Shown one piece after another: positions 1 through 1,837 of a stretch of DNA of 64,000 bases. Source of the stretch: Escherichia coli (GTDB lineage: Bacteria > Pseudomonadota > Gammaproteobacteria > Enterobacterales > Enterobacteriaceae); NCBI RefSeq assembly GCF_017348835.2, contig NZ_CP072312.1; one strand, written 5' to 3'. Each line of letters starts with the position of its first letter. Position 1 is the first letter of the stretch. A program made the position numbers.

Positions 1-1837
1 TGACAGACTTTCTGCTGGGACACCTGCGTCCGGGTGAACCGCCCCGGGTTTCCTGGAGAGTGTTTTATCTGTGAACTCAGGCTGCCAGATCATCGTTTCC
101 GATGGAAGCATAATAAGCTTTTTCTGCTTCTGCCGGGGGAGTATGGCCCAGCCTTTCCAGCAATCGTCGATTGTTATACCAGTCCACCCACGTGAGTGTG
201 GCCAGTTCCACTTCTGCACGGTTTTTCCAGCTCTTACGGTGTATTACCTCCGCTTTGTAAAGACCATTGATGCTCTCCGCCATCGCGTTGTCATACGAGT
301 CGCCAGTACTCCCTGTTGATGCCAGTAATCCGGCTTCCTTAAGCCGCTGCGTGTAGGCCAGCGATACATACTGAGAACCTTTATCACTGTGATGGATTGT
401 GCCGGACGGCCGACGGGCCCACAACGCCTGCTCCAGTGCATCCAGCACGAATGTTGTTTCCATGGATGATGAGACCTGCCATCCCACGATGTATCCGGCG
501 AACACATCAATGATGAACGCCACATAAACGAAGCCCTGCCATGTGCTTACCCAGGTAAAATCAGCCACCCACAACTGGTCTGGACGTTCTGCCACGAACT
601 GACGGTTTACGCGGTCGCATGCGGCAACGGCTTTCCGGCTGACGGTAGTGCGGACCTTTTTACCCCGGAGAACACCGGCAAGTCCCATAACTGCCATGAG
701 ACGTGCCACAGTGCATCTGGCCACTCTGATACCTTCCCGTAACAACTGACGCCAGACTTTACGCACACCGTATACCTGGTGATTTTCATCGTATACGCGC
801 TGTATCTCTTTCTTCAGCCAGTCATCGTGCTGCGCACGGGCACTGCGTTTATCCGGATGATGTCGCTGTTGCTGACAATGGTAATACGTTGACGGGGCAA
901 TATGCAGTTCGCTGCATACCGGTCCGACCCCGTACTGCTCACGCAGCTTATCCAGCAGTGGCATTATTTTTTCCAGAGGCGGTCGAACTCCGCCTTCGCA
1001 AAATAAGCGGAAGCCTGGCGAAGGATATCGTTACTGCGGCGCAGTTCACGATTTTCACGTTCCAGCTCTTTCAGACGCTGACGTTCAGCGGTGGTGAGTC
1101 CACCATCACCACTCCCGGTATCCCGCTCATGCTGGCGAACCCAGACACGCAGAGTCTCCGGCGTACAGCCAATCTTTGGAGCAATGGAACAAATTGTCGC
1201 CCATTGTGAGTCATATTCATCCTGACTTTCCAGAACCATACGAATCGCCCGCTGACGGACTTCGGGGGAAAAACGAGTATTTTTAGTCATCCTGTTTACC
1301 TCTTTCTCAGGGAGTTTAGTCTCCAGGATTTCCGGGGCGGTTCAGCCATAAAGTTATGTTCCTGACGTATGTATTCGTCCCGCAGGAATCAACCAACTGA
1401 TTTATCTGAATTTATCATGCCCCTCAACTCTGATTTTATTCATCTTGTTTACCGAATCGGGTATATCTGATAACTGTCCCGATAAGACTTTTTGTTTCGC
1501 CAGCATAATCTCTTTTTCAAGCTTTTGAAGTTCTTTTATATAGTCATTCTTCCCTTCTTCATCAGCCGGTGAAATGCTCTCAGGAAGACGCTTCATTGAC
1601 TCATCTACAGCATCATCCATTCTGTCAAGAGCTTCAAGAAGCTCCTTTTTATCCATTGATGACTGAAGTACACTCATATTCCTTGCAAGAACTTGCATGC
1701 TTTCATCAAGTTCTTCTGCCACTGTAATCCCCCCACACAAAAAATATAATGCCATACCACAGCTGATTATAACTTTATTGCTTTTCTGCATAATTTCTCC
1801 TTCATGAGGGAGGTGCCCTCCCTCATCAGTTTTATCA

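Follow-up and report, generated by a model that had tools for sequence, protein, structure and literature searches.

Cytochrome b562 is heavily used as a model and engineering protein, for example in BRIL fusions and metal-templated assemblies. As far as we are aware, no role in the cell has yet been established for it. The E. coli protein, CybC (256b; PF07361), is a periplasmic four-helix bundle of approximately 105 residues, with Met7 and His102 as the haem ligands.

The gene arrangement closest to the one described here is known from publications on Yersinia. There, the gene for a periplasmic catalase-peroxidase (katY) immediately precedes a co-oriented b562 gene (cybC), and after this comes cybB, which encodes a membrane cytochrome b561. 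In 1999, Garcia et al. reportedly described cybC and cybB behind katY in their work on KatY. Both co-transcription and induction by peroxide have been shown in Yersinia. The katY-cybC-cybB operon of Y. pestis (YPO3319-3321) was predicted by co-expression, and a single mRNA was found by RT-PCR (PMC2231364). An iscR mutant of Y. pseudotuberculosis shows joint derepression of the three genes (YPTB0809-0811; PMC4055776), and H2O2 induces all of them approximately 7 log2-fold (bioRxiv 10.64898/2026.03.04.709318). In the literature searched, no paper proposes or tests a role of a b562 cytochrome for the KatP or KatY peroxidase, and the cytochrome goes unmentioned in a detailed study from 2023 of how katY is regulated.

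The cytochrome c peroxidases offer a further comparison, in proposed logic only. In yeast CcP with cytochrome c, and in bacterial Ccp/YhjA fed from the quinol pool, a haem peroxidase is reduced by a small soluble cytochrome, and H2O2 is reduced with respiratory electrons. CcP and KatG belong to the same class I peroxidase superfamily. The donor in the CcP systems is however c-type, while that proposed for the katP module would be a b-type four-helix-bundle cytochrome; and KatG, unlike CcP, also dismutates H2O2 without a donor. Electron transfer from b562 to KatP is put forward here as a proposal. We know of no natural electron donor of KatG, and peroxidatic electron donors reportedly stimulate its catalase turnover (an observation attributed to Ndontsa et al. 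in 2012).

The gene behind katP and its product

The window analysed here is a stretch of 64,000 nucleotides of E. coli DNA (contig NZ_CP072312.1). The katP locus lies near its beginning, and consists of the following features.

1402 to 1791, minus strand: gene for a b562-family precursor of 129 residues, an ORF with an ATG start (RefSeq WP_001172748.1; pO157 L7018)
1797 to 1802, minus strand: Shine-Dalgarno sequence AAGGAG, read directly, 5 nt 5' of the b562 ATG
1835 to 4045, minus strand: katP, catalase-peroxidase HPI of 736 residues, the upstream member of the katP-b562 pair, with its TGA stop codon at 1835-1837

The original prediction had described an ORF of 129 residues, 43 bp past the katP stop, on the same strand and with its own ribosome-binding site. 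All of these are present, and both genes are on the minus strand. The spacer between the katP stop and the b562 ATG is 43 nt, and purine-rich motifs like AAGGAG also precede the b562 start codons in homologous loci. The katP product scores 1083 bits against the NCBIfam catalase/peroxidase HPI model (cut-off 770), and its N-terminus reads as a Sec-type signal peptide. Some database variants of the b562 protein have 117 residues and start at Met13. This start was rejected here because AAGGAG serves the first ATG, and because the lysine-rich n-region would otherwise be lost.

RefSeq labels the identical protein, WP_001172748.1, as "cytochrome b562" beside katP in hundreds of plasmid records. Of 5426 complete E. 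coli genomes, 453 carry the pair, which occupies 454 plasmid and 5 chromosomal places. In EHEC strain 86-24, quantification of the L7018 protein gave levels 6.3-fold higher in the piglet gut than in vitro (PMC3686733). The pairing had at first been taken to be uncharacterised. This was too strong, in that the gene is annotated (L7018), its product has been detected in the EHEC proteome, and the Yersinia operon has been verified and is induced by H2O2; it stands in that the literature searched contains no functional study. The gene, its position beside katP and the operon precedent are already on record, and the remaining value is therefore that of a testable hypothesis, not of a discovery.

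The ORF product has a single significant match in Pfam, to Cytochrom_B562 (PF07361; E 2.3e-14), with residues 27-129 covering positions 1-102 of the 102 in the model. It also matches the NCBIfam cytochrome b562 equivalog NF011632 from end to end, at 63.1 bits, which is below the curated cut-off of 130. This marks the katP-linked b562 as a member of the family (a paralogue) and not as a CybC equivalog, despite the identical RefSeq product name. Its identity to E. coli CybC is approximately 19-23% (about 23% in a global alignment). Sequence comparison with solved b562 chains gives weak matches (E 0.06-0.14), in which the N-terminal Met and C-terminal His motifs are aligned. The mature protein is predicted to have 104 residues and a pI of about 4.8, and is thus more acidic than CybC (pI 5.4). 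Residues equivalent to Arg98 and Arg106 of CybC are conserved, and there is an aromatic residue at position 105.

AlphaFold2, run from the family alignment, predicts a four-helix bundle, with helices at residues 24-44, 48-66, 78-103 and 107-128. The pLDDT is above 90 over the mature part and below 50 for residues 1-22, which are modelled as disordered. When the model was compared with the PDB using Foldseek, each of the top 50 matches was either cytochrome b562 itself or an engineered derivative or fusion of b562. The match to 256b has a target TM score of 0.88 and an rmsd of 1.6 Å over 105 columns, and the top matches have rmsd values of 1.4-1.6 Å. The helical body with CybC-like ends that had been anticipated thus corresponds to a full-length PF07361 domain with a predicted four-helix bundle and b562 as its structural neighbour, and structure prediction, named at the outset as a check, gives a model that superposes on solved b562 with an rmsd of about 1.5 Å. 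Taken as a sequence match and a predicted model, the ORF product is almost certainly a genuine but divergent protein of the cytochrome b562 family, a paralogue rather than the CybC orthologue.

The following features within the gene correspond to functional positions of CybC.

1696 to 1698, minus strand: codon for Met32 (mature Met7), candidate axial haem ligand, invariant in the 12-sequence family alignment and aligned with Met7 of CybC
1417 to 1419, minus strand: codon for His125, candidate second axial haem ligand, an invariant column aligned with His102 of CybC
1717 to 1791, minus strand: predicted Sec signal peptide, residues 1-25 (MQKSNKVIISCGMALYFLCGGITVA|EE), assigned heuristically from hydropathy and from alignment with the CybC cleavage site

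Apart from the start codon, the residues that are invariant across the 12 members of the family-wide alignment are Met32, His125, M58, L55, P70 and L91. The protein has no histidine other than His125, and ends in GHDKFR. The candidate Met and His ligands singled out in the original prediction align with Met7 and His102 of CybC, and its HDKFR terminus is present. The signal-like N-terminus is also recovered, by the same heuristic: a lysine-rich n-region is followed by a hydrophobic stretch of 18 residues ending in TVA|EE, which aligns with the cleavage site of the CybC precursor. The Y. pestis homologue has been detected in the periplasmic fraction. A lipoprotein reading, in which IISC11 would resemble a lipobox, was considered and rejected: the Cys lacks conservation and has just 10 residues in front of it.

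One further feature lies between the two genes.

1804 to 1826, minus strand: a perfect GC-rich hairpin of 10 bp (AUGAGGGAGG-GCA-CCUCCCUCAU), located after the katP stop and ahead of the b562 ribosome-binding site, with no U-tract on the coding strand

This hairpin has a minimum free energy of -17.9 kcal/mol (z = -4.3), and a T-run is present on the opposite strand only. Hairpins at the same position with other stems (CCGGGGGAG, CAGGGGGAG, UUGGGGAGG) are found in the related loci L002 (5536-5583), L014 (4963-5000) and L016 (4948-5000). The hairpin is weaker in L008 and absent from the Citrobacter-type L019, so that overall it is present in four or five of the six lineages. The stem sequences differ between lineages, in what looks like compensatory change. 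No Rfam family matches it. A scan of the katP-b562 gap found neither a sigma-70-like promoter nor a coding-strand terminator. The same promoter scan gave no match anywhere in 1250-4500, including upstream of katP, and therefore cannot place the promoter of the operon. We suggest that the hairpin probably does not terminate transcription but sets the ratio of katP to b562 expression, as a barrier at the mRNA 3' end or as a partial stop.

Conservation of the pair

An exhaustive search with the single sequence found 17 relatives. A profile search was dominated by canonical enterobacterial CybC, and the Yersinia protein was not among its matches. In five further E. coli or Citrobacter lineages, the b562 gene is preceded on the same strand, 28-69 nt upstream, by the gene for a signal-peptide KatG of 730-738 residues. 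They are listed here with the identity of each b562 to the ORF product and of each KatG to KatP.

L008, a contig of E. coli/Citrobacter type: b562 90%, KatG 97%
L002 and L005, metagenome contigs: b562 57-59%, KatG 89%
L014, of E. coli chromosomal type: b562 53%, KatG 87%
L016, E. coli, flanked by IS elements: b562 33-36%, KatG 75%
L019, Citrobacter chromosome: b562 29-32%, KatG 73%

The flanks of these loci are unrelated, and include fimbrial/EAL, ShlB/TPS and porin genes as well as IS elements, making at least six different contexts. KatP and all of the partner KatGs have Sec-type signal peptides without a twin-arginine motif. PLSDB contains no plasmid matching L016 or L019. Against homologues for which dS is unsaturated, dN/dS is 0.17-0.39 for b562 and 0.05-0.07 for katG. 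The b562 gene is therefore under purifying selection, yet its protein evolves approximately 4-5 times faster than KatG.

No cybB (b561) ORF or remnant follows b562 in the window or in any of 24 loci searched with a CybB query. Here the locus differs from Yersinia: the cybB that follows the b562 gene there is missing both in this window and in the five related lineages, and the KatP-type loci thus represent a two-gene version of the operon that has three genes in Yersinia.

Members of the b562 family also occur elsewhere. The katP-linked gene is on an EHEC virulence plasmid directly behind katP, while a canonical-type relative (P0025) lies beside pmbA; a close relative (P0014) follows a LysR-family gene and has no KatG on its 4.3-kb contig. 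A neighbour-joining tree of 12 b562 proteins is rough and poorly resolved. It does not group all of the KatG-linked members together, and leaves undecided whether the linkage arose once or several times.

This distribution bears on a reading in which the cytochrome is a generic periplasmic redox protein, not specific to KatP. It would travel with katG by operon inheritance and act as chromosomal CybC does, for instance exchanging electrons with b561/CybB in the handling of periplasmic superoxide or other oxidants, in parallel with KatP and not in series. Family genes that stand alone, next to pmbA, in the leading regions of F-type plasmids or after a LysR-family gene are what this reading would lead one to expect, as are KatG-linked proteins that are not clearly monophyletic, and CybC levels that are uncoupled from those of KatY in Y. 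pestis (see below). However, the adjacency of 28-69 nt has been kept through approximately 70% turnover of the b562 sequence, in at least six flanking contexts and always with a signal-peptide KatG. Moreover, E. coli O157 already has a canonical cybC, and one would expect a redundant second copy to degenerate, yet the katP-linked gene is intact, with dN/dS well below 1. On balance we regard a purely generic role as unlikely, and the evidence as pointing more towards a partner of KatP.

Three further observations concern the family rather than the pair. At L020 (5001-5384), a lone b562-family gene is found in the leading region of an F-type Salmonella plasmid, with an SLT transglycosylase gene on one side and psiA/psiB on the other. 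Its product (in a cluster named Salmonella enterica) shares 42% identity with E. coli CybC in the mature part, and this is an unexpected site for a periplasmic cytochrome. A locus scan with an alignment of the closer relatives added no new context: it returned only five near-identical copies of the katP-linked b562 gene, on very short contigs (L009-L013) assigned to Lachnospiraceae MAGs, Acinetobacter idrijaensis and Terrisporobacter mayombei, which are most likely contamination or mis-binned E. coli plasmid DNA. Finally, a database protein of 206 residues (P0024) has 68 b562-like residues at its C-terminus behind an unrelated N-terminal part, possibly as the result of chimeric gene calling or of an artefact in the assembly.

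Insertion sequences around the module

The module is flanked on both sides by the same insertion sequence.

35 to 1344, minus strand: IS3-family element of 1310 bp, ending 56 bp downstream of the b562 stop
4176 to 5485, minus strand: another copy of this IS, directly repeated and 99.2% identical to the first, 130 bp upstream of the katP start

The terminal repeats of this element suggest that it is IS629-like. The two direct copies bracket a katP-b562 module of 2.8 kb. No target-site duplication is evident around the bracketed segment (its flanks are GGG and GGT), so that composite transposition of the segment is possible rather than demonstrated.

The position of the left-hand copy raises the question of whether the b562 gene is a decaying remnant of an operon of the katY-cybC-cybB type, truncated by the IS 56 bp downstream. 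The abutting IS, the lack of cybB, and a G+C content of 38% for the ORF as against 46% for katP (48% for the window) would all fit such a history. Against it, the ORF is intact and its ligands are invariant, purifying selection is also seen in lineages that have no flanking IS, and relatives whose downstream sequence is intact likewise have no cybB. The protein has moreover been detected by mass spectrometry in EHEC. This reading is therefore largely refuted, and we consider it highly improbable. Both it and the generic role discussed above are less likely than the two readings that follow, in which b562 is a redox partner of KatP or a source of its haem.

Some other features of the window may be recorded here. 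It contains five full copies of the 1310-bp IS, which are 97.6-100% identical (35-1344, 4176-5485, 25926-27235, 34352-35661 and 45025-46334). IS fragments at 33943-34351 and 35657-36565 indicate that one full copy has apparently been inserted into another, disrupted copy. Synteny with the best-matching plasmid record, NZ_CP024480.1, is broken by rearrangements of the window exactly at IS copies. Just past the right-hand copy beside katP is a block that is missing from that plasmid record, comprising an IS91-family transposase gene (5571-6803, plus strand; 284 bits, cut-off 125) and a RelE/StbE-family toxin gene (7039-7320, minus strand). The IncFII replication initiator RepA is encoded in two pieces, by overlapping minus-strand ORFs (8501-8950 and 8883-9344), one matching the N-terminal half of the family model and the other its C-terminal half. 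As read from the sequence, this suggests that repA is frameshifted and probably inactive.

Possible roles of the katP-linked cytochrome

On the basis of these observations, we propose that the katP-linked b562 is a dedicated periplasmic partner of KatP, and most likely a soluble one-electron donor to it, although we hold this mechanism tentatively, at somewhat less than an even chance. The b562 gene would share a transcript with katP, as the downstream member of a two-gene module, and its product would be exported by Sec to the periplasm, where it would hold haem b through Met32 and His125. Ferrous b562 would then reduce KatP compound I and compound II. Such donation would allow a peroxidase cycle to run at low H2O2, and would rescue catalase-inactive intermediates of KatP. 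The oxidised cytochrome would be re-reduced from the quinol pool by a membrane cytochrome of the b561 type. Its gene, cybB, is present in cis in Yersinia; in E. coli it would act in trans from a chromosomal site.

Several points favour this proposal. The KatG-b562 pair has been kept while some 70% of the b562 sequence has turned over, always with exported KatGs. CcP, a related class I peroxidase, has a small soluble cytochrome as its donor. The Em of b562 is approximately +170 to +190 mV, far below that of KatG compound I/II. The quinone-linked b561 in the Yersinia operon favours an electron chain over a chaperone. The joint induction of that operon by peroxide, the stimulation of KatG catalase turnover by peroxidatic donors, the purifying selection on b562 and the detection of its product in EHEC are further points on this side. 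Other points tell against it. Since the KatP-type loci have no cybB in cis, the route of re-reduction is hypothetical. The mature b562 and KatP are both acidic (pI 4.8 and 5.8 respectively), so that there is no obvious charge complementarity. P0014 has no KatG nearby, and the tree does not unite the KatG-linked b562 proteins.

The main rival to electron donation is that b562 supplies or buffers haem. KatP, exported unfolded by Sec, must acquire its haem b in the periplasm, and b562 might capture periplasmic haem for apo-KatP, or else sequester haem from KatP that has been damaged by peroxide. The premise agrees with the Sec-type signal peptides, lacking a twin-arginine motif, of KatP and all the partner KatGs. 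It is also in keeping with the pattern of conservation, as the haem-binding residues are the most conserved part of b562, while its surface evolves fast. Six-coordinate Met/His ligation is however typical of electron carriers, the membrane b561 of the Yersinia operon would be needless for a chaperone, and canonical relatives of CybC occur without a KatG neighbour. We also know of no b562 that transfers haem, and count this against the reading. Expression in iron-starved Y. pestis speaks in its favour: CybC, which has a Fur flag, increases 3-5-fold alongside HmuT and HmuS, two proteins of haemin uptake, and KatY decreases 4-12-fold (PMC2835676). The same data show that the two proteins are not strictly co-abundant, and thereby also weigh against a simple donor role. 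Overall we judge haem supply to be rather improbable, though it is the alternative to be taken most seriously, and continue to favour electron donation to KatP.

More generally, it is possible, although we would not call it probable, that KatG-linked b562 cytochromes are the physiological redox partners of periplasmic catalase-peroxidases, and that KatP or KatY together with b562 (and b561) forms a chain from quinol to H2O2 in the periplasm of enteric pathogens. If this is true, it would be the first defined cellular function for cytochrome b562, and b562 would be the first natural peroxidatic donor for KatG. The pair is conserved despite heavy turnover of sequence, and is present both on a virulence plasmid and in Yersinia; it would thus provide a cheap and direct route to the role of b562 and to the donor of KatG.
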